A DNA stretch of 40,167 nt from a virus: the UHGV virus genome UHGV-1350284; one strand, 5' to 3'. This document shows positions 4,898-37,575 of this stretch, piece after piece. The stretch's first letter is position 1; each line of letters begins with the position of its first letter. The position numbers and the translations under genes are program-made. Under the pieces are notes generated by a model, which saw only the letters and a list, made by a program, of their open reading frames with translations, was not told the DNA's origin and searched no databases.

Positions 4898-5341
4898 ATG
4901 AAGATGATCCTCGACAAACTGTTGATGTTCTCCGAAGCGCAGGCGGTTACGGCTACTGCTGCTTCTACTGATGTGATTGACCTGGCGCCTGTCGACGGCA
5001 CCCGCCGTGATATCGGCGTTGGTTATCCGCTGGAATTCTGGGCTCTCGTTAACACCACGGCTACCGCTTCTGGCGCCGCTACCGTCAACGTGCAGTTGCA
5101 GACCAGCCCAGACAACAGCACCTGGACGACCATTTATGACAGCGGTTCCCTGGCTCTGGCAGCGCTTAAAGCTGGTAAGCGCGTTGTGTCGGCGAAGGTG
5201 CCGGCGGGCGTTCAGCGCTATCTGCGTGTGAACTACTCCGTAGCCACCGGCCCGCTGACTGCTGGCGCGTTCACATCCGGTATCAATCTGGACGTTGATG
5301 CGAATACCCCGTACCCGACCCGCTCTAAAGTGACCGGCTAA
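4898..5341 (+). CDS. Putative head decoration or minor capsid protein (147 aa, beta-rich, Thr/Ala/Ser-rich)
   Basis: Position right after the capsid gene. Alternative start at 4904. Confidence 0.5.
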   Translation: MKMILDKLLMFSEAQAVTATAASTDVIDLAPVDGTRRDIGVGYPLEFWALVNTTATASGAATVNVQLQTSPDNSTWTTIYDSGSLALAALKAGKRVVSAKVPAGVQRYLRVNYSVATGPLTAGAFTSGINLDVDANTPYPTRSKVTG

Positions 5342-5351
5342 GGAGATATCG

Positions 5352-5693
5352 ATGTCAGCTGAAAAAGCAAAATACCGCGTGCTGCGTCTGTCCCATATCC
5401 ATAACAACCTCTGGCCGGAGGGTTCAGAGATTGAGTATGACGGGGTGCCTGGCTCCGCGCTGGAGCCGCTGAACGAAGCGGCAAAGGAAGCAAAGGCGAA
5501 GGCAACGCAAAAGGTTGTGGCTCCCGCCGTCGTTAAACCTGAGACGCTGAACGAAGGCGGTGGTGGCGATGACGAGCTGGATAAGCTCCGCGAAGAGTAC
5601 GAGCTGCTCTTTAACGAGAAGCCTCATCACAACACCAAAGCCGAAACGCTGCGCGAGAAGATCGCCGAAAAGCGAAAAGATTTAGGCGTCTGA
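5352..5693 (+). CDS. Hypothetical virion protein (113 aa)
   Basis: RBS AAGGAGAT. A terminator follows. Confidence 0.6.
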   Translation: MSAEKAKYRVLRLSHIHNNLWPEGSEIEYDGVPGSALEPLNEAAKEAKAKATQKVVAPAVVKPETLNEGGGGDDELDKLREEYELLFNEKPHHNTKAETLREKIAEKRKDLGV

Positions 5694-12994: not shown

Positions 12995-14892
12995 TGGCCG
13001 ATGTATTTTCTCTGGCTCCTGAAGGCCAGGCATGGACGGACGATAAAACGACGGCCAACCCGGCGCGGCCAGAAGACTATGATCCGACGTTTTTTCAGGG
13101 ATCTATTTCCGCACCTGTGCGCGGTGTAGCGGAGGGAACAATCGGGCTGGCGCAGTCTGCCGTTGGATTCAGCAAGCGACTTATCAGCGATCCAGCATTC
13201 ACGGCAGATGTGGCGCCGACGGTGAACATTTTCCGCATTATGTTCCCTGACGCTGATAAAGCCCTGAACGACACCTATGACACGATCGGTAAGCAACTGC
13301 AGGGCGCGCGCGGTTATGTGAAACCAGACGCCGGCAGTCAGGGTACGGCCGCAGAGGTACTTTATGGACTCGGCCAGTTTGCGCCAGCGATTGGTACCTC
13401 AATCATCGGCGGCCCTACGGTCGGCGCCGCCACGGCTTTTGGATCTACCTATGAGCAGTCATATCAGGACTTCAGAGCCAAAGGTGTAGACGAGTCCACG
13501 GCGCGTAATCTGGCTGCGCAACAGAGTTCCTTCAATGCCGCAGGCATGGCGCTTCCCGCCGCTATCGGTACGACGCTGGCCACGCGTATCGCGTCAGGCG
13601 TCGCAATCAATACAGGATTTGGCGGCCTTAACCGTTATTCAGTTGGCGAAACACTGGAGGAGAAAGGCTATTCCGATATGGCGAAGCAGTACCGGGTATT
13701 TGACGGGCAGGCGATGCTGGTTGACGCTGTGCTTGGCGGTGCCTTTGGTGGTGCTCATCACCTGGCCTCGCGAAATGCTGATACACCACCTCCAGCAGAT
13801 ACTGAAGCGCCAATACCGGCGGCAGAAGTGCAGAGCGTGCCTGATAACGTTTCCTCGGCAGCCCAAGGTGAGGGAGCTCCAACGCCAGTTTCTCTGGGAG
13901 ATGTTCCGGCAGCACCAGAGGCAACATATGAATCAAGAATGGCTGAACTTGAGGCTGACGCCGGGAAGTTGCTTTCCCGTGGCGATCGCAAGGTGTGGCA
14001 GTCAGAAGTGGCAAACAGCCAGCGAATCCTGCAAAACCTCAACGAGCAGCGAGCCTCTATCCTTAACGAACAACCATCAGGTAGTGGAAAAGCATTGTCG
14101 ACAGCCCGGCAGGATAAGCAGGCCAGACTGCGTGCAGTTGACCAGCAGATCGAACAGGTGCAGAAGCGCCTGCAGGATGCGAATAACACTCTGGCGCCAA
14201 ACATGCCAGGCGGTCAGTTTTATGAGGCCCGCGCTGACCTGTCACGTATTCAGCAGGGGATCATCCCTGAAAGTATGCGCGGCCTGGTGCGTGAGACAGA
14301 AATTAAACCTAGCGACATCGATGCGGCCCATACTTTGAACGAAGGGCTTTATTACGACATTGAGTCGGCTCCGGTTTTGCATGCCAGCAATGAGAGCATC
14401 AACAGCCATGTGGCTGCCATGGATGAAGCATACCGGCAGCTAAATGACGGTCAGCCAGTGAACATCGGCATGATGGCCCGTGGGCTTGATGGCCCGGCGC
14501 GGCCAGGCATGCTGGAATCTGCAAGCGAGCAGTACCATGCAATGCAGCAGGTTTTCGAAGAGAATGGTGTCAGGTATGAAACGCCGTCAGAACTGGCAGG
14601 AGAAGCACCGGCTCCGCGCGCAGAAAGTGCATTTACGGCAGCCGACGAAAATGGCGGGCATGTCAGTGTTGATCCTGACACCGGCCAGGCGATTTCATCA
14701 AACAGTTACGACCTGATGGCGGCGCGCGATATGGCGACTACCAATCCGGATCTGACAATTACGCACCCCGACACAGGGCAGCCTGCAAAGCTCTCCGATG
14801 TTCTGGCTGAATTTGACGACCAGATCCAGACCGTACAGGCAGAGTCAAAAGTTTATTCCGTTGCAGCAGCGTGCTTCCTGAGGAACCCATAA
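12994..14892 (+). CDS. Internal virion protein (632 aa)
   Basis: ATGA overlap upstream and TAATG overlap downstream. Confidence 0.6.
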   Translation: MADVFSLAPEGQAWTDDKTTANPARPEDYDPTFFQGSISAPVRGVAEGTIGLAQSAVGFSKRLISDPAFTADVAPTVNIFRIMFPDADKALNDTYDTIGKQLQGARGYVKPDAGSQGTAAEVLYGLGQFAPAIGTSIIGGPTVGAATAFGSTYEQSYQDFRAKGVDESTARNLAAQQSSFNAAGMALPAAIGTTLATRIASGVAINTGFGGLNRYSVGETLEEKGYSDMAKQYRVFDGQAMLVDAVLGGAFGGAHHLASRNADTPPPADTEAPIPAAEVQSVPDNVSSAAQGEGAPTPVSLGDVPAAPEATYESRMAELEADAGKLLSRGDRKVWQSEVANSQRILQNLNEQRASILNEQPSGSGKALSTARQDKQARLRAVDQQIEQVQKRLQDANNTLAPNMPGGQFYEARADLSRIQQGIIPESMRGLVRETEIKPSDIDAAHTLNEGLYYDIESAPVLHASNESINSHVAAMDEAYRQLNDGQPVNIGMMARGLDGPARPGMLESASEQYHAMQQVFEENGVRYETPSELAGEAPAPRAESAFTAADENGGHVSVDPDTGQAISSNSYDLMAARDMATTNPDLTITHPDTGQPAKLSDVLAEFDDQIQTVQAESKVYSVAAACFLRNP

Positions 14893-17648
14893 TGAAACAG
14901 GCATGTGTTGAAGCCATTGCCCAGACGCTGGGCCGCCAGCCTAAGGCTGATGAGCTGAAAAATATCGAAGACCGGATCAAAGAGGCTGTGCGCGACGTTC
15001 ACCGGAAAAACGCCAGGGAAGGAAAGACTGGTATCCCTGATGCACAGACGTACATGGAGGCCGCTGAGCTTGTGCGTCAGCGCGTTGTGCATGATGTCTA
15101 TAAGAAGCGCCAGCGCGTCGCACAGAACGCTCTGGCAATCAGCAGGGTAACAGACATCCTCGATGCGAATATCCCGCCAGAACAACAGACACCCGCCAAT
15201 TTGCAGCAGTTTATCTTTGCCGGTCGGCGTACCTCTGATGGTAAAGATATTGCCGTGACATCTGCAGAGGAACTGGCGACAGGCGCCTATCAGGACTGGT
15301 CGCGCCAGCTCAGCGCAGAAATGCTAAAAGCCGGCGATGACGTTAGAAGATTTTTCGAGCAGAGCAAGGCACTTGGTGAGCAGCGTTTTCGCAGCTTTTT
15401 CGATCAGCAGGCGGCTAAGTCCGCACAACTGCAGATCCTGAAAGAGCTGTATGGTGAAGATACCGGTAACCCGCAGGCGAAGAAGATCGCAAAGGTCTGG
15501 AGCGACGTAACCAGCCGGGCGCGGCAGGAGATGAACGACAACGGTTTTGATATCGGGTTGCGCAACGACTGGCATTTGCCGTATGTGGACGACGCTGATT
15601 TTATCCGCAATGCCGGGCGCGATGAGTGGCTGGCATCTTTGCCGCTGGCAGAACAGGCTAAGGCGCGACTTTCAGGCCGCCAGCCGCCGATTGAGTTTGC
15701 ACGGCAGGCATGGGTGGATGACGTTTACAACACCCAGGATCGCAGCAATTACGTTAATCCTGACGGCAGCCCGATGAATGACATCGAGTATCGCCAGGCG
15801 CTGGAAGCGATCTTTGAAACGAAGGCCACCGACGGTGCCAACAAAATCGACCCGGGCGCATTCATGGGGACCGGCGGGATAAAGAACCGCGGATCCCAGA
15901 GCAGGGTAATGGCGTTTAAAGACGCCCAATCCCATTTCGCCTACATGGAGCGCTACACTCAGCAGCCGGTGGCGGGTGTAATGATGTCGCACCTGCAATC
16001 TTCCTCTCGCGATTTGGGGGTTGTGAAAGCATTCGGACCTGATGCTGCAAGAAACTTTTCCCTGGTGCTGGACCGTGTCTATCAGCGTGCGGTGACCGGC
16101 GGAAAGGAAGTCGGCAAGATGAACGATGAGCGCAAGATGGTCGAGCGCATGTTTAACTCAATGGCCGGCCTTAATGGTGCGGCCACATCGAGCGTATTCA
16201 CGTCGGCTGTTGGCGGTCTCCGTAACCTTATGACCAGCGCCATGCTCGGTACCAGCGTTCTGACCGCAACCAGCGATCAGGCTATCATGCGCGCGAATGC
16301 GCAGGCATTAGGCTTTGACCGTAATGGCATGCGGCTCTCTGCAAATACGCTGAGAAACCTGTTTAACGGCGATGCGAAGCGCGCGAATGCGGAGCTTGGC
16401 CTGCTGGTAGATTCGCATGCTGCTGTCGTCTCTAAGATGGGAGGTTTTGACCTGTCTCGCGGCATTACCGGCTGGTTTGCTGAGAAAACCCTGAAGTGGT
16501 CCGGGCTGATTGCAATGGACCGGGCAAACAAGGCGTCATTTGGCCTGCTGATGTATAAAAACATTGGCGAGCTAACCCGCAAATTTAAGACCCTTGATGA
16601 AGTTAAGGGCTCAGATAAAACCATCCTGGCAAATAAGGGATGGAGTAATGAGGACTGGGCTATCATGGCAGCGGCAGAACTGCGGCCAATGACTACAGCA
16701 GGACATATGGGCATGACGCCGGACGCTATTTACGCCGTTCCGGATGAGGTGATCACCAATATTATGGCTGACAGGATCGCCCAGGTGCGCGCCGGTAGTG
16801 ATACGGCACTGGCAGCTCTTGGCGATATGTCACCTGAACGCATGAAGCGGATGAAGGAAGCATTCGACGCAGAGGCCGAGCAGACGATTACTCGCATGGT
16901 GCGTAACGCCCGGGCGGAAGCTGCTCAGAAATTGCTGGGGATCACTCACGGTGAGATGACCAGCGCAGTGACAACGGCCACCGGTCTGGATACCTACGCC
17001 CGCGATGATGCAGGCCAGCTGCTTAAAAGCTTCATGCTCTTTAAAACCACGCCGTTCGCTGGTTTTCGCCAGTTGGTTAACAGGGCGAGCGATCTGGATA
17101 CTGTGCCAGCCATCAAATTCCTGGCGTCCTATATTGCGGGTACGACGCTGGCCGGGATGTTTGCTAACCAGATGAACAGCCTGCTGACAGGCAATGACCC
17201 GCTGGACATGACAAAGCCTACCACCTGGGTGCAGGCACTGCTGAAAGGCGGTTCGTTCGGTATCTATGGCGATTTCCTGTTCCAGGATCACACGCAGTAT
17301 GGATCGAGTATCGCGGCTACAATCGGCGGTCCGGTATTGAGTTTCGCCGAGCAACTGACAAAGTTGCTGATCACCAACCCACAGAAAGCGCTTCAGGGAG
17401 AAGAAACTTCCTTCGGCGCCGATGCGCTAAAGACCGCTCGTATGATCACCCCGTTTGCCAACCTCTGGTATGCTAAAGCCATTACCAATCACCTGATCCT
17501 GCAACAGCTTCAGGAGATGGCAAACCCAGGATACAACGACCGGGTTAGGGACCGCGCTCAGCGGGAATTTAACACAACGAGCTGGTGGGAGCCTGGCGAT
17601 ACTGCGCCGCGCAGAGCACCAGATTTAGGGAAAGCGGTGGGGAATTGA
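14892..17648 (+). CDS. Internal virion protein, gp16-like (918 aa)
   Basis: Large Ala/Gly-rich ejection protein in the gp16 position. Confidence 0.6.
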   Translation: MKQACVEAIAQTLGRQPKADELKNIEDRIKEAVRDVHRKNAREGKTGIPDAQTYMEAAELVRQRVVHDVYKKRQRVAQNALAISRVTDILDANIPPEQQTPANLQQFIFAGRRTSDGKDIAVTSAEELATGAYQDWSRQLSAEMLKAGDDVRRFFEQSKALGEQRFRSFFDQQAAKSAQLQILKELYGEDTGNPQAKKIAKVWSDVTSRARQEMNDNGFDIGLRNDWHLPYVDDADFIRNAGRDEWLASLPLAEQAKARLSGRQPPIEFARQAWVDDVYNTQDRSNYVNPDGSPMNDIEYRQALEAIFETKATDGANKIDPGAFMGTGGIKNRGSQSRVMAFKDAQSHFAYMERYTQQPVAGVMMSHLQSSSRDLGVVKAFGPDAARNFSLVLDRVYQRAVTGGKEVGKMNDERKMVERMFNSMAGLNGAATSSVFTSAVGGLRNLMTSAMLGTSVLTATSDQAIMRANAQALGFDRNGMRLSANTLRNLFNGDAKRANAELGLLVDSHAAVVSKMGGFDLSRGITGWFAEKTLKWSGLIAMDRANKASFGLLMYKNIGELTRKFKTLDEVKGSDKTILANKGWSNEDWAIMAAAELRPMTTAGHMGMTPDAIYAVPDEVITNIMADRIAQVRAGSDTALAALGDMSPERMKRMKEAFDAEAEQTITRMVRNARAEAAQKLLGITHGEMTSAVTTATGLDTYARDDAGQLLKSFMLFKTTPFAGFRQLVNRASDLDTVPAIKFLASYIAGTTLAGMFANQMNSLLTGNDPLDMTKPTTWVQALLKGGSFGIYGDFLFQDHTQYGSSIAATIGGPVLSFAEQLTKLLITNPQKALQGEETSFGADALKTARMITPFANLWYAKAITNHLILQQLQEMANPGYNDRVRDRAQREFNTTSWWEPGDTAPRRAPDLGKAVGN

Positions 17649-17836
17649 TGAAAAAAGTGTTTAGGATAATCGGAATAATAACTGGCCTAATTACATTTTT
17701 AAGTGCCGGGTTCTATTTTGTAGAGAATTCCTTCGATAACCTTTTTCACGGCAATATCTTTATCAATATCTCAACTGGTATTGTCTTTATTTTCTCATTG
17801 ATCGGACTGTATTTCATATGGAATAGCAAGCCGTGA
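17648..17836 (+). CDS. Small 2-TM membrane protein (62 aa), low-GC moron
   Basis: TGATG coupling to the gp16-like gene. GC about 33%. Two hydrophobic helices. Confidence 0.55.
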   Translation: MKKVFRIIGIITGLITFLSAGFYFVENSFDNLFHGNIFINISTGIVFIFSLIGLYFIWNSKP

Positions 17837-17844
17837 CATGTCAC
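17833..17844. repeat. Perfect 12-bp palindrome GTGACATGTCAC (copy 1 of 3), overlapping the stop codon of the upstream gene
   Basis: Exact inverted repeat. Related copies at 37126-37137 and 39711-39722. Confidence 0.6.
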
Positions 17845-17846
17845 AA

Positions 17847-17864
17847 AGGCCGCGAGAGCGGCCT
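17847..17864 (+). terminator. Hairpin AGGCCGC-GAGA-GCGGCCT between convergent genes. Possible bidirectional terminator.
   Basis: 7-bp GC stem followed by TAATTATATT. Confidence 0.4.
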
Positions 17865-17880
17865 AATTATATTGTCCTAA

Positions 17881-18033
17881 TCAATATCCGCCGGGGCGAG
17901 AATCAGCAGAACGCCCGCCGCAACGTGATCCGTCAGCAGCAGTATCACTATCATGCTGGCAGTTACCAGCAAAAGCCTGTGTAGTGGAACCCAGAGACAT
18001 CAGAACAAACAGGACTGCGATTACTTTTTTCAT
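17881..18033 (-). CDS. Small secreted protein (50 aa): signal peptide plus a 28-aa Cys-containing mature peptide
   Basis: MKKVIAVLFVLMSLGSTTQAFA followed by GNCQHDSDTAADGSRCGG... The RBS is weak. Confidence 0.4.
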   Translation of the reverse strand: MKKVIAVLFVLMSLGSTTQAFAGNCQHDSDTAADGSRCGGRSADSRPGGY

Positions 18034-18131
18034 TTTCACTAACCATGTGTAGACCACTGAATGTGGCGATGGGATTGTATAATTATGTTCGGTTTCTAGC
18101 CATAAAATCTTCATGGTCTGGTAAGTTGCCG

Positions 18132-18392
18132 TTATCTCAGATGCTGCCGCAACTGCATTGTGCAGAAATCCAGGTGTGTTTGCAGCTCCCGCATCGACAA
18201 CTGCGAGCTTGTCACATAGTTAACGAGCGCCACCAGTTCCGCCGCCGCACCGCTGACATCGTGGCCGTCTCGCTCCATCTCCCTGAGCAACTCCATCAGC
18301 TGTGATTTTACAACCAGGGATCTGACCCCTTCCGGGGTGTGAATACGATCTGCAAAACCTTCGTCGACAGGATACTGGTACCGCTCTGGCAT
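18132..18392 (-). CDS. Hypothetical 87-aa protein on the opposite strand inside the virion module. Candidate SOS-controlled antirepressor (inference).
   Basis: ATG at 18392 with GGGAG 8 nt upstream. An alternative ATG at 18407 lacks an RBS. A LexA-like box and promoter lie just upstream. Confidence 0.5.
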   Translation of the reverse strand: MPERYQYPVDEGFADRIHTPEGVRSLVVKSQLMELLREMERDGHDVSGAAAELVALVNYVTSSQLSMRELQTHLDFCTMQLRQHLR

Positions 18393-18410
18393 TAGGAATA
18401 CTCCCATAAA

Positions 18411-18430
18411 TACTGTATGCATATACATAT
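18411..18430. promoter_or_regulatory. Near-consensus LexA (SOS) box TACTGT-ATGCATAT-ACATAT with one half-site ACAT instead of ACAG. It overlaps the promoter of the 87-aa minus-strand gene.
   Basis: CTGT-N8-ACAT geometry with an AT-alternating spacer. 19 nt upstream of the ATG at 18392 on the minus strand. Confidence 0.35.
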
Positions 18431-18467
18431 AACAAAACCAAAATGTAAATTCTAGGGGGCTCACTGT

Positions 18468-18486
18468 TTACCCTTTAGGTAATAAT
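18468..18486 (+). promoter_or_regulatory. Operator palindrome TTACCCTTTAGGTAA fused to TAATAAT, in the divergent region before the tail-fiber gene
   Basis: Same TTACC-N5-GGTAA palindrome and GGTAATAAT element as at the immunity region. Confidence 0.45.
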
Positions 18487-18528
18487 GCCATTCTTCGATG
18501 TATGTTTTATTCATATACGGTTTGATTG

Positions 18529-18541
18529 GTAATAGAATGAT
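18529..18541 (+). promoter_or_regulatory. TTGGTAATAGAAT extended -10-like element 46 nt upstream of the tail-fiber start
   Basis: Member of the TGGTAATAAT promoter family. Confidence 0.35.
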
Positions 18542-18586
18542 CTGCAGTGTGGCGCGCCGGGCGCTGCGACATCCGGAGATTTCTAT

Positions 18587-20848
18587 ATGACGGTCTCAAC
18601 CGAAGTCGACCATAACGACTACACAGGGAACGGCGTTACCACATCTTTCCCGTACACGTTCCGTATCTTCAAGAAGTCAGATCTCACCGTCCAGGTAGCT
18701 GACCTTAACGAAAATATTACGGTGCTGACTCTGGATACCGATTACTCCGTTACCGGGGCTGGTACCTATTCTGGCGGGAATGTTGTGCTGATGTCACCGC
18801 TGGCCAACGGATGGCAGATTTCTATCTCGCGTGACCTTCCCGTTACCCAGGAGACTGACCTACGCAACCAGGGGAAGTTCTTCGCAGAGGTCCATGAGGA
18901 TGCGTTCGACAAGCTGACGATGCTGATACAGCAGTGCTTCGGCTTCCTTCGCCTGGCGCTACGCAAGCCATCATTTATCGCTAACTATTACGATGCGTTG
19001 AATAACCGCATTAGAAACCTGCGTGACCCGTCACAGGCGCAGGATGCTGCGACGAAGAGCTATGTTGATACAACCGGTGCAGAAAATTTAAGCCACACAT
19101 TACGCTTCCCCGAAGCAGTAGATGCGATGTTGAATGTTGACTTTCGGGCTAATTCCTTGCAGGGATATAATACGCATGGTAAGCCTATTCCTGTCTTTTC
19201 TATGACTGATACTGCAGATCTCGCTCTCAAATTAGCTTCTAATATTGGCCCTGGGTTGATTGGGTTTGACATAGATCAAATATACCCTGCGGATACTATT
19301 GGTAGAAAATTAAATAACGATTTCTATGTGTCTCAAAATCTACAGGATTATTATGACAAGCATGGTAATTGGGATGATGCTATTTTTGAGGCGCAATGCA
19401 ATATTGTAATCAAAAATTACTCACCAATAATCACGCTACCTGCAAAGGTCATGGTTTTCAATAAGCCAATTCTTGGTGGACGTGCTCTTGGTGATGCAAT
19501 TCACGCAGCACATCCAGAGCTTAATTTTTATAACCCATCAACAGACACTTATGCGAAGACGTGGCCATTAATGCTAATAGGTGCCAGAGCGAGATGGGCT
19601 GAAGGAATACTCTTTGAAGGCGTAGGTTCTCAGATAGTTTTCTCTGGGTGTGCAACGCAGCGCGACTACACATATCAGAATTCTGCTGCAATATATAGTG
19701 GGCCAACAAACCCATATGATAGGAAAACACAAAAGGAAGTTTCACAAATAAAATGGTTTGACACGATATACATGCAAGATGTGAACGTCAGATGCTTAAA
19801 CAAGGATTCATCACGCCTTGGGAAAGTGCACGGAATAGTATCCCTCAGTGGTAAATGCCTCCTTAAAAATATAGCAGTATATCAGTTTTACGGGGCAGGT
19901 ATTTACCTTGACTGGAACTTTGAACCTATTGTTGAAGGCTGCGCTGTTATTCAGTGTGGGCGTATGGCAGATGCCCTTCCGGGACCTGGGGTTACTGACG
20001 ATTTTATTACGCTAGGACGTACCGCCAAAGAGTATCAAACATATGGTGCTGTACATGTTGGATACTCAGCGGCAGGAACTGACAACTCAAACTTTGTGTC
20101 ATTCCGAGATCTTCATTTGGAAGATAATTATTACTGCGCTGCTGATGTTATAGTCTCAGGAAATTCATCACCAGTCAGAATTTATGATGTGCATTTTGAG
20201 TGCGACCCAATAGCAATTGGCGAGCTTTCACAAAAATGGGTTATCACATCAGGGCAATATGGCGTCAGGTATTTCGGGCAGGATACCGAGCCAGGCTTTA
20301 ATCCTGCAGTCACTCCATACACCACCAGGGCTGGATATACCACCTTAAATAATGTAGCTGGGTACAGTGCTAATTATGCTGGTTTTTATGGTTCTAGAGG
20401 TACTTCAGGATGCATAGCAGATAATTGTTTTTTCCCTAACGTTGGTAATGTGGAAGTTATCGGGCTTAATGCAAACGCATATTTTTATGCAAATAGTTGT
20501 TCATTTGGTAGTGTGGTGTTCAGCGGTGGTAACGCTAACCTTCAGCCTCTAAAATTAACTGGCTGCAGTGTTTCTTCTATAAGAATGAGTTATGCATATG
20601 GTTATAAATTAGTAAGCACAGAGGTATCTGGAGCCATAACGATTACTAGTGAATTAAGTAATCAGGCTGCTGGATGGCACCACTCCAACGTGAGTGCAGG
20701 AAGCATATCTGCCGTTATTAATTATGGTAGTGGAGACTTGTCTTTAACATCAACAAGCGTGGCCTCTAACATAGTTTGTTATCTAGGGAGCATAGAACTA
20801 CCACGTTATTCTTACTATAACGCTGTAACTCTTGGAGGTGCTTCATAA
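18587..20848 (+). CDS. Tail fiber/tailspike. N-terminal T7 gp17-like adaptor domain, C-terminal low-GC beta-helix (pectate-lyase/depolymerase-like) receptor-binding part.
   Basis: 753 aa. N-terminus ...NGVTTSFPYTF...TLDTDYSV... GC drops sharply from about 19060. Confidence 0.8.
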   Translation: MTVSTEVDHNDYTGNGVTTSFPYTFRIFKKSDLTVQVADLNENITVLTLDTDYSVTGAGTYSGGNVVLMSPLANGWQISISRDLPVTQETDLRNQGKFFAEVHEDAFDKLTMLIQQCFGFLRLALRKPSFIANYYDALNNRIRNLRDPSQAQDAATKSYVDTTGAENLSHTLRFPEAVDAMLNVDFRANSLQGYNTHGKPIPVFSMTDTADLALKLASNIGPGLIGFDIDQIYPADTIGRKLNNDFYVSQNLQDYYDKHGNWDDAIFEAQCNIVIKNYSPIITLPAKVMVFNKPILGGRALGDAIHAAHPELNFYNPSTDTYAKTWPLMLIGARARWAEGILFEGVGSQIVFSGCATQRDYTYQNSAAIYSGPTNPYDRKTQKEVSQIKWFDTIYMQDVNVRCLNKDSSRLGKVHGIVSLSGKCLLKNIAVYQFYGAGIYLDWNFEPIVEGCAVIQCGRMADALPGPGVTDDFITLGRTAKEYQTYGAVHVGYSAAGTDNSNFVSFRDLHLEDNYYCAADVIVSGNSSPVRIYDVHFECDPIAIGELSQKWVITSGQYGVRYFGQDTEPGFNPAVTPYTTRAGYTTLNNVAGYSANYAGFYGSRGTSGCIADNCFFPNVGNVEVIGLNANAYFYANSCSFGSVVFSGGNANLQPLKLTGCSVSSIRMSYAYGYKLVSTEVSGAITITSELSNQAAGWHHSNVSAGSISAVINYGSGDLSLTSTSVASNIVCYLGSIELPRYSYYNAVTLGGAS

Positions 20849-30055: not shown

Positions 30056-30637
30056 TTACTGGTTCTGGCTGACGATGAACTTGATGAAGGCGGCGATCTT
30101 GTTTTTCTCTTCCTGCGGCAGCCCGGCGTATTCATGGTGGTCATAGTCAATCAGACCAGCATTACCAGGCGGCAGGATCAGCTCATATGCATCGCGGCCG
30201 AACGCCCTGGCGATAGCCGACAGTACGCCAATGCTGGTGGAGCCTTCGCAGTTCAGGATGCGATTTACGGTCGCCTGGCCGATACCGGCCGCTTCCGAAA
30301 CCTTTTTCTCTGAGTTCAGATCCGGATGCTGTCCCATCCATACACCCAGGGTAAACGCTGCCTGCTTTTCCACACTCCATTCCTGCGGGTCGATAATCTC
30401 CGGCAGCGTCGGGGTATCTGACAGATGGTCGATATCCAGCCAGAAACGACCTTTCCCGGCGAACGACTCGATCTCGCGTGCCGCGTTAGCGCCGATATTT
30501 TTTGTCCCCTTGCTCCACCTGTTAACGAGGTTAGCTGATTTTTTGATTCTCTCGGCAAACCGGAGTTGCGTGTTATCGAAATCCTTCCGGATTATCTCAT
30601 TGAGGTTGTCGCGTCTTATGTCGTAGATGCTTTTCAT
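30056..30637 (-). CDS. Prophage repressor (cI analogue) with two XRE-type HTH domains and no S24 peptidase domain
   Basis: 193 aa. It is flanked by operator clusters and divergent from the cro-like gene. It appears leaderless (no SD sequence). Confidence 0.7.
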   Translation of the reverse strand: MKSIYDIRRDNLNEIIRKDFDNTQLRFAERIKKSANLVNRWSKGTKNIGANAAREIESFAGKGRFWLDIDHLSDTPTLPEIIDPQEWSVEKQAAFTLGVWMGQHPDLNSEKKVSEAAGIGQATVNRILNCEGSTSIGVLSAIARAFGRDAYELILPPGNAGLIDYDHHEYAGLPQEEKNKIAAFIKFIVSQNQ

Positions 30638-30690: not shown

Positions 30691-30757
30691 TTACCATAAA
30701 GGTAAACTTACCAAAAAGGTAACAGTCATTGATTTTTACACCAGATTGGTAATAATC
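30691..30757. promoter_or_regulatory. OR-type operator cluster (TTACCATAAAGGTAA 30691-30705, TTACCAAAAAGGTAA 30708-30722, degenerate third site) and pR extended -10 TTGGTAATAAT (30746-30757)
   Basis: Classic divergent immunity-region architecture between the repressor and cro-like genes. Confidence 0.6.
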
Positions 30758-33230: not shown

Positions 33231-33307
33231 TTACCAAAATGGTAATAAAATATGCGCAAGACTATTGATGTTGATCCGTTTATGGTTATAAATTACCAAT
33301 AAGGTAA
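33231..33307 (+). promoter_or_regulatory. Two operator palindromes (TTACCAAAATGGTAA 33231-33245, TTACCAATAAGGTAA 33293-33307) with GGTAATAAAAT -10-like elements, upstream of the VRR-NUC/nin operon
   Basis: AT-rich 125-bp intergenic region after the replication gene. Confidence 0.5.
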
Positions 33308-37143: not shown

Positions 37144-37186
37144 TTGACTAAATCCTCGCATAATTATACTGTTTAAATATACAGTA
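37144..37186 (+). promoter_or_regulatory. SOS promoter: -35 TTGACT (37144-37149) and consensus-geometry LexA box TACTGTTTAAATATACAGTA (37167-37186) overlapping the -10
   Basis: Perfect CTGT-N8-ACAG with an AT-rich spacer. RBS GAGGT before the ATG at 37205. Confidence 0.7.
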
Positions 37187-37204: not shown

Positions 37205-37534
37205 ATGGGTTTTCCATCTCCAGCCAAAGACTACGTCGAGCGAACCCTATCCCCAAATATCCTGTGCCACATTGATGGTAATTGCCGGGTTATCGAAACC
37301 AGCGCCGGATACGCCGTTATCAATACCGCCATCAGGCCAAAGCAGGGGAGTAACATCCTGATATCCCTTTGTGGCCTCCTGCAGTTTGCAGTCGTTCGCG
37401 GGAAGGCAATCATCACCGATGACGGCGAAGCGATTGAAGGCGATGCGCTTGATGATGTCGACGTGAAATGGGTGCTGACATTCCTGGTTAATCGCGTCGA
37501 CTGGCAGAGAGAAGATGATATTCCGATCATGTAA
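37205..37534 (+). CDS. UmuD'-like protein (HumD-like). It starts at the GFPSPA motif, lacks the N-terminal RecA-cleavage tail, and its Ser nucleophile motif is degenerate.
   Basis: MGFPSPAKDYVERTLSPN... aligns with UmuD residues 25-45 (GFPSPAADYVEQRIDLN). SGDSM is replaced by SAGYA. Confidence 0.65.
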   Translation: MGFPSPAKDYVERTLSPNILCHIDGNCRVIETSAGYAVINTAIRPKQGSNILISLCGLLQFAVVRGKAIITDDGEAIEGDALDDVDVKWVLTFLVNRVDWQREDDIPIM

Positions 37535-37556: not shown

Positions 37557-37575
37557 TTACCGAAAGGGTAATTAT
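37557..37575 (+). promoter_or_regulatory. Operator palindrome TTACCGAAAGGGTAA (with extended flanks ATTATTACC...GGTAATTATTT) 20 nt upstream of TerS
   Basis: Same palindrome family. Candidate repressor-controlled packaging-gene promoter. Confidence 0.45.

Follow-up and report, generated by a model that had tools for sequence, protein, structure and literature searches.

The Rep/Ant switch of the Salmonella phage SPC32H was reportedly described by Kim and Ryu in 2013 (J Virol 87:11775) and by Kim et al. in 2016 (PNAS), with structures available as PDB 5D50 and 5D4Z. The entry 5D50 is the Rep–Ant complex of this phage. According to a review citing Kim and Ryu 2013, self-cleavage of LexA results in the production of Ant, which inhibits the repressor by protein–protein contact. 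Another paper describes Rep as binding DNA in the form of a tetramer, which Ant, itself a tetramer, breaks by binding two Rep dimers; according to a third, the C-terminal tetramerisation domain of Rep doubles as the Ant-binding domain. This system has already been characterised both genetically and structurally, and the locus analysed here, which lies in a 40,167-nt stretch of viral DNA (UHGV-1350284, hereafter the window), belongs to it. The sole non-routine element of the locus is a conserved, non-canonical and weak half-site in a LexA-like box upstream of ant.

The ant gene and its surroundings

The ant gene of the window (18132–18392, minus strand, ATG at 18392) encodes 86 aa followed by a stop codon, and the open reading frame is exactly where the original prediction had placed it. 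A ribosome-binding site, GGGAG (18401–18405, minus strand), can be read from the sequence 8 nt before the ATG, and its GGAG block is kept in 18 aligned loci. A longer, 110-aa form with a GTG start (to 18464) finds no support in the relatives, all of which start at the ATG. A phmmer search against the PDB aligned residues 2–84 of the 86 Ant residues with residues 2–84 of 5D50_E (“Anti-repressor protein”) with an E-value of 3.2e-32, and tblastn revealed that the SPC32H ant gene is 63.9% identical to that of the window. In the tblastn results, homologues are present in 35 phage records with identities of 60–98%, including the SPC32H gene annotated as “ant: anti-repressor protein”; further homologues exist in seven species-representative genomes and in at least 444 IMG/VR contigs. 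Among 8 diverse homologues, 36 Ant residues are invariant. We are almost certain that 18132–18392 encodes an orthologue of Ant.

In PHROGs, Ant falls into phrog_450 (“unknown function”; E = 4.5e-44). It matched no family of Pfam (E ≤ 0.1) or NCBIfam, and no ribbon-helix-helix, Bro-N, ANT or KilA-type domain was found in Pfam. The Ant family, whose structure has been solved and whose function has been published, is yet unnamed in PHROGs and absent from Pfam and NCBIfam, and most phage records describe its members as hypothetical. The assignment made here gives a function to a gene that is unnamed in the surveyed Klebsiella phage records and in the three family libraries.

At the DNA level, the approximately 1.1 kb around the ant locus matches Klebsiella phages only; among the closest of these phage matches listed, two are classed as Uetakevirus (the epsilon15 group), one of these being vB_KpnP_BUCT711. 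On one side of ant, the gene of a gp17-like protein of 925 aa (14871–17648, plus strand) is followed by a small membrane protein gene. On the other side, the gene of the 753-aa tailspike (18587–20848, plus strand) is followed by the lysis genes, the integrase, an early region with the repressor gene, and then the terminase. This order fits Uetakevirus and matches the annotated epsilon15 map. These matches and the gene order place the window among the epsilon15-like (Uetakevirus) phages of Klebsiella. Lying on the minus strand between the two plus-strand genes, ant does run against the structural operon, as had been predicted, and its placement after gp17/gp18-like genes and divergent from the tailspike gene is the same in SPC32H, SPC32N, epsilon15, phiV10, Tyrion, BUCT554 and others.

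A GC-rich hairpin at 17847–17864, likely a two-way terminator, separates the virion operon from the ant unit, and in the epsilon15 record a terminator is annotated at the corresponding position. Since the virion operon apparently ends at this hairpin, the tailspike and lysis genes probably need a promoter of their own, which would be off in the lysogen. A consensus scan predicted a promoter at 18510–18538 (plus strand; −35 TTCATA at 18510–18515, 17 nt, −10 TAGAAT at 18533–18538), and this block, putatively the tailspike/lysis promoter, is nearly invariant in the 18 aligned loci. Between this block and the ribosome-binding site of the tailspike gene, there is another GC-rich hairpin (GGCGCGCCGGGCGC, 18551–18564, plus strand), which is kept in 18 of 18 aligned loci with a stem sequence that differs in some of them (for example, L012) and which may serve to stabilise the 5′ end or act as a regulatory stem.

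Downstream of ant, a 50-aa open reading frame (17881–18033, minus strand) has a signal-peptide-like N-terminus (MKKVIAVLFVLMSLGSTTQAFA) and matches phrog_14503 (“membrane associated protein”; E = 4e-30). No convincing intrinsic terminator was found between ant and this reading frame, which is possibly co-transcribed with ant and may represent a phage-borne accessory gene inducible by SOS. The slot it occupies is variable and holds a Bro-N antirepressor gene in relatives. In many of them (L001 at 4996–5685 on the minus strand, phiV10, Tyrion, phiv142-3, ZX5 and TL-2011b), this second, larger antirepressor lies downstream of ant in the same orientation. In the L001 protein, the N-terminal part is Bro-N, and the final 80 aa resemble Ant (39% identity, E = 3e-23). 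The Bro-N proteins of the relatives share with Ant their C-terminal 80 aa only, that is to say, Ant also exists as a domain of Bro-N fusion proteins. There is no Bro-N gene among the open reading frames of the window. An Rfam search of 17500–18700 gave nothing meaningful, with a chance miRNA match (E = 0.14) only and no sar-like antisense RNA family.

The Rep repressor and its putative operators

Rep, the putative target of Ant, is a 193-aa repressor encoded at 30056–30637 (minus strand). It aligns over residues 1–192 with 5D50_A (“Repressor”), a full-length match with an E-value of 4.4e-76, and it matches the C-terminal fragment 5D4Z with an E-value of 7.7e-39. The Pfam matches of Rep are HTH families (HTH_3) only, with no Peptidase_S24. 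The earlier description of the repressor as non-cleavable agrees with this absence of an S24 domain from a full-length homologue of SPC32H Rep.

A palindrome upstream of ant had been reported at 18468–18482 (TTACCCTTTAGGTAA); it was confirmed at this position and turned out to be a copy of a repeated operator-like motif of this phage. A search for TTACC-N4-6-GGTAA gave ten exact copies in the window, all with N4-5 spacers, compared with 0.06 expected and with 0 of 100 shuffles. The copies are concentrated around rep: three (29851, 29925 and 29988) lie downstream of rep before the early-left genes, and two adjacent ones (30691 and 30708, spanning 30691–30722) lie in the rep–cro intergenic region, which ties the motif to the immunity switch. 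The other copies are located at 516, before the portal region; at 33231 and 33293; and at 37557, directly before the small terminase gene. In the epsilon15 record, the site equivalent to 18468–18482 is annotated as “protein_bind repressor, lysogeny”, and repressor sites are annotated at the corresponding places, except for the rep–cro spacer, where none is annotated. The annotated epsilon15 sites are themselves predicted, and the motif is thus the putative Rep operator, in agreement with the original naming of 18468–18482 as a repressor palindrome.

The putative operator at 18468–18482 is located between the divergent ant and tailspike promoters. It ends 14 nt upstream of the putative ant −35 (described below), with its centre near −56 from the putative start; on the other side, the −35 of the putative tailspike promoter is 27 nt away. 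The operator overlaps neither core promoter. Of the loci with enough upstream sequence, all except 2 have the operator 87–92 nt ahead of the ant ATG. Given that the tailspike and lysis genes are probably transcribed from a separate promoter, the operator may act on this promoter, on ant or on both. As to the direction in which it faces, no consistent −35 was found upstream of the GGTAATAAT that recurs after many operators. Dual control of ant by LexA and Rep is plausible, and that Rep also controls ant is a possibility that we lean against. Elsewhere in the window, the palindrome marks many intergenic control regions, and from the copy directly before the terminase genes it follows that Rep may repress late genes directly. 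In addition, the degenerate sequences ACACC-N5-GGTAATAAT at 30738 and 31079 resemble extended −10 promoters (TGGTAATAAT) that carry one operator half.

The predicted ant promoter and its LexA-like box

The upstream regions of ant were extracted from 101 loci, and 18 diverse ones were aligned. The alignment revealed a rigid layout: from the tailspike start toward ant, a GC hairpin is followed by the near-invariant tailspike promoter block, 26–27 variable bases, the palindrome ATTACC-N5-GGTAA, approximately 14 bases, a CTGGA(A/T)A block, 17 bases, an invariant TG-n-TA, a 20-nt box, GGAG and the ATG. The ant promoter was not called by the consensus promoter scan, and we infer it from conservation in the 18 aligned loci. 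The TG-n-TA (18430–18434) is invariant in 18 of 18 loci, as an extended −10 would be; we therefore place the putative extended −10 of ant (TG-T-TATATG) at 18426–18434 on the minus strand. A second TATATG lies at 18420–18425 on the same strand, and the putative −35 (TAGAAT, 18449–18454, minus strand; CTGGAAA or CTGGATA in relatives) is 17 nt from the −10 hexamer. The invariant TG-n-TA overlaps the distal half of the 20-nt box in all 18 loci, and this comparison backs the earlier proposal that the box sits over the putative −10.

The LexA consensus is CTGT-N8-ACAG within TACTG(TA)5CAGTA (PMC6590174). The box of the window (18411–18430; TACTGTATGCATATACATAT on the plus strand and ATATGTATATGCATACAGTA in the orientation of ant) had been called near-consensus, and it reads CTGT-N8-ACAT, with one mismatch to CTGT-N8-ACAG. 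It thus deviates from the strict LexA core, with 7 of 8 core bases and 15 of 20 consensus positions matched. The proximal half, ACAG/CTGT (18413–18416), agrees fully with the consensus. The distal half reads ATGT (18425–18428; ACAT on the plus strand), and the consensus would have G in place of T18428. We ranked boxes by a heterology index, which is approximate and was calculated from a symmetrised matrix of 31 E. coli sites (the training sites span 1.8–12.6). The index is 2.1 for the epsilon15 box, 3.4 for the SPC32H box, 7.7 for the variant box common among relatives (described below), 8.2 for the SPC32N mutant box, and 11.0 for the window ant box. The last value is the second best of all 40,148 positions; sites as good as this are expected 0.08 times per 40 kb and approximately 1e-4 times for a given 60-nt promoter stretch. 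This rarity argues that the box is not a chance match, but its affinity is doubtful.

In the GenBank sequences of SPC32H and SPC32N, the sole difference in the ant region is a change from ACAG to AAAG inside the box. In the 2013 study of Kim and Ryu, SPC32N reportedly differs from SPC32H by a point mutation in the LexA box that renders Ant constitutive, and this single core mutation is reported to abolish the lysogeny control of SPC32H. The concern raised originally that the ACAT half-site might be too weak is therefore justified, for the window box (11.0) scores weaker than this operator mutant (8.2). That the index ranks the window box below a mutant reported as non-repressing also means that the index cannot settle affinity; Salmonella SOS genes with an index of 11–13, uvrD (11.48) and one recN box (12.97), are still induced by damage. 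With ATGT as the distal half-site, LexA probably binds more weakly than in SPC32H, and its binding to the window ant box is predicted to be weak. We nevertheless consider it likely that ant is under LexA control in this phage.

The window contains another, perfect consensus LexA box (TACTGTTTAAATATACAGTA, 37167–37186, plus strand; index 1.8), which is located 18 nt upstream of a 109-aa open reading frame (37205–37534, plus strand). This reading frame lies just before the small terminase gene and has homologues in 61 phage records, mostly of Klebsiella phages. It starts with the UmuD′/HumD motif GFPSPAKDYVE and matches phrog_3469 (“UmuD-like”; E = 5e-44); only its first approximately 40 residues match UmuD, far below the NCBIfam cut-offs. 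Judged by its box and N-terminal motif, it is a predicted second SOS-controlled gene of the phage. The presence of a perfect box in the same genome points to a host LexA of standard specificity, and the variant ant box is thus no adaptation to a different LexA.

The ant boxes of 98 loci fall mainly into two classes; the 80 IMG/VR loci surveyed (from at least 444 relatives) were chosen by similarity to the query. A perfect CTGT-N8-ACAG is present in 20 loci (Salmonella, E. coli, Citrobacter, Enterobacter, Scandinavium, Pseudocitrobacter and Erwinia). The variant ATGT-N8-ACAG, nearly always ATATGTATATATATACAGTA, is present in 74 of the 98 loci, a proportion that is not a population frequency because the IMG/VR loci were picked by query similarity; every locus labelled as Klebsiella and that of Superficieibacter are included. 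The common variant matches the consensus TACTG(TA)5CAGTA at 17 of 20 positions and differs in the first three bases, and the window box has a further GC in the spacer, which it shares with the Superficieibacter locus only. In 95 loci, the box is 20–21 nt from the ATG, and the window box is found at the point of the promoter where these relatives have their perfect boxes. The TGT and ACAG bases, which LexA contacts, are invariant across both classes in the 18 aligned loci, and the flanks diverge. The variant box is found with Ant proteins that are 55% to 100% identical to the window Ant and, in a quick neighbour-joining tree, is not restricted to one clade. Its presence in 74 of the 98 loci indicates a maintained state rather than decay, and the invariance of TGT and ACAG between varying flanks is likewise read as continued selection for LexA binding. 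We offer only tentatively, as an improbable reading, that ATATGTATAT[A/G][T/C]ATACAGT is a distinct selected ant operator, either a low-affinity asymmetric LexA site with a lower SOS threshold or a site that functions only with Rep bound 14 nt upstream of the −35; the induction rule of Klebsiella epsilon15-like prophages would then differ from that of SPC32H.

The same boxes can be explained in another way, namely, that Ant works but the variant box confers no effective LexA repression, so that ant output is set mainly by a weak promoter, by Rep at the nearby operator or by another factor. The change of the core C in the near-invariant CTG, with an index of 11.0 as against 3.4 and 8.2 in SPC32H and SPC32N, is what this explanation would expect; the fixed 14-nt spacing between the Rep operator and the −35, seen in nearly every locus, and the two loci (L025 and L036) in which a shorter (TA)n destroys the N8 spacing, are also compatible with it. 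However, the common variant keeps 17 of the 20 positions of the full LexA consensus, its TGT and ACAG bases are invariant over Ant proteins down to 55% identity, as continued LexA binding would give, and boxes of similarly weak index respond to SOS in Salmonella. Moreover, many carriers are prophages in sequenced isolates, in which ant must be kept off. We regard ineffective LexA repression, which would entail leaky, hair-trigger or partly SOS-independent induction, as unlikely.

Two kinds of altered box were observed. In L025 and L036, the (TA)n tract is two bases shorter, which changes N8 to N6 and breaks the box; this suggests TA-repeat slippage as a source of switch variants. In L026 (68–1468) and L023 (up to 114), both IMG/VR Klebsiella-type contigs, an insertion sequence lies inside the (TA)n of the ant box. 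An open frame within it extends over at least 412 aa, is open at both ends of the stretch read and is by its appearance a putative transposase. The insertion parts ant from its −10, its −35 and the Rep operator, and should make the prophage non-inducible through Ant.

The proposed switch and known systems

In the preferred reading, which we consider probable, LexA silences ant, and the locus is the antirepressor arm of the Rep/Ant lysis–lysogeny switch of epsilon15-like temperate podophages. The idea of an SOS-controlled antirepressor as the induction trigger, put forward in the original prediction, is supported, as both Ant and Rep are homologues of the SPC32H pair and the gene position is the same. 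In the lysogen, Rep on the TTACC-N5-GGTAA operators would hold the phage promoters off, and RecA could not inactivate Rep directly because Rep has no self-cleavage domain. Host LexA bound to 18411–18430, over the extended −10, would keep ant silent. Upon DNA damage, LexA would cleave itself and Ant would be made; Ant would then bind Rep and break up the DNA-binding Rep tetramer, and the lytic cycle would follow. With weaker LexA binding, the switch may fire at a lower SOS level, or part of the silencing of ant may come from a weak promoter or from the Rep operator nearby.

A different role for the gene product, that of an Arc/Mnt-like small DNA-binding regulator acting on a neighbouring Bro-N antirepressor or on the tailspike promoter, is brought to mind by its P22 immI-like position, with the ejection-protein genes on one side and the tailspike gene on the other, and by the Bro-N “anti-repressor” gene that comes next in the same orientation in several relatives. 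We judge this role very improbable: the product has no Pfam match, the ribbon-helix-helix families included; its full-length match was solved in complex with a repressor rather than with DNA; and the SPC32H orthologue has already been reported to bind Rep, not DNA. The window, in addition, has no Bro-N gene to be regulated, and the Ant-like C-terminal domain of the Bro-N proteins points to a shared repressor-binding role instead of DNA binding. That the box is a chance AT-rich near-palindrome in a mere promoter −10 region, bound by no repressor, can practically be dismissed, for although the region is AT-rich and overlaps the putative −10, and although the bare 16-mer CTGT-N8-ACAG with one mismatch is as frequent in the window as in shuffles (15 found versus 13 expected), the complete 20-mer ranks second among the LexA-like sites in 40 kb, can be aligned position by position with the perfect boxes found in 20 relatives, and has an invariant proximal half, ACAGT, which lies downstream of the −10 and has no promoter role.

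The Rep/Ant switch with LexA control of ant predicts that this group of Klebsiella prophages would be induced by DNA-damaging antibiotics through LexA and Ant and not through repressor cleavage. If the half-site tunes or bypasses LexA control, it would affect the inducibility of prophages that are common in clinical K. pneumoniae and would provide a natural test case for the degeneracy of core sites that a LexA operator tolerates.

The same logic, a non-cleavable repressor with a small LexA-controlled antirepressor, is known from Gifsy GfoA/GftA/GfhA (Lemire et al. 2011, PMC3121763), 186 Tum and N15 AntC. The original prediction had taken Gifsy-type antirepressors as the comparator and as a precedent for dual control; this did not hold, as the Gifsy paper describes LexA control only and the word “dual” is absent from it (PMC3121763). 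The Gifsy genes, moreover, follow a dinI homologue in the vicinity of the replication genes and are not part of the virion cluster, whereas the window has no dinI homologue next to ant. The immI region of P22 (mnt, arc and ant) resembles the window in that an antirepressor locus lies between the ejection-protein genes and the tailspike gene. By contrast, P22 Ant is large, is controlled by Mnt and Arc rather than LexA, and is dispensable for the SOS induction of P22; the window Ant has no match in Pfam.

The right comparator is the Ant family of SPC32H and epsilon15 rather than the Gifsy antirepressors. Orthologues at the same place are epsilon15 gp19 and phiV10 p24, both annotated as hypothetical proteins. 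The window also shares with epsilon15 a set of predicted repressor sites: ahead of terS and of the portal region, in the spacer between ant and the tailspike gene, at three places downstream of rep, and in the early-right region. Unlike the window, epsilon15 and phiV10 have canonical boxes; their records neither name the gene nor annotate a LexA box. Comparison with SPC32H revealed that (i) Ant is approximately 64% identical over its full length, and Rep is homologous from end to end, shares the two-domain layout and lacks an S24 domain; (ii) the gene position is the same, with a divergent tailspike gene, the equivalent gene being named “ant: anti-repressor protein” (SPC32H_020) in GenBank, divergent from tsp; and (iii) the promoter has the same layout of operator, −35, TG-n −10, 20-nt box and ribosome-binding site. 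The window phage differs from SPC32H in its host, which is Klebsiella; in the small secreted-peptide reading frame that follows ant; in one extra base between the TG-n and the box; and in the box itself, whose distal half reads ATGT instead of CTGT, whose spacer contains the GC, and whose index is 11.0 as against 3.4.
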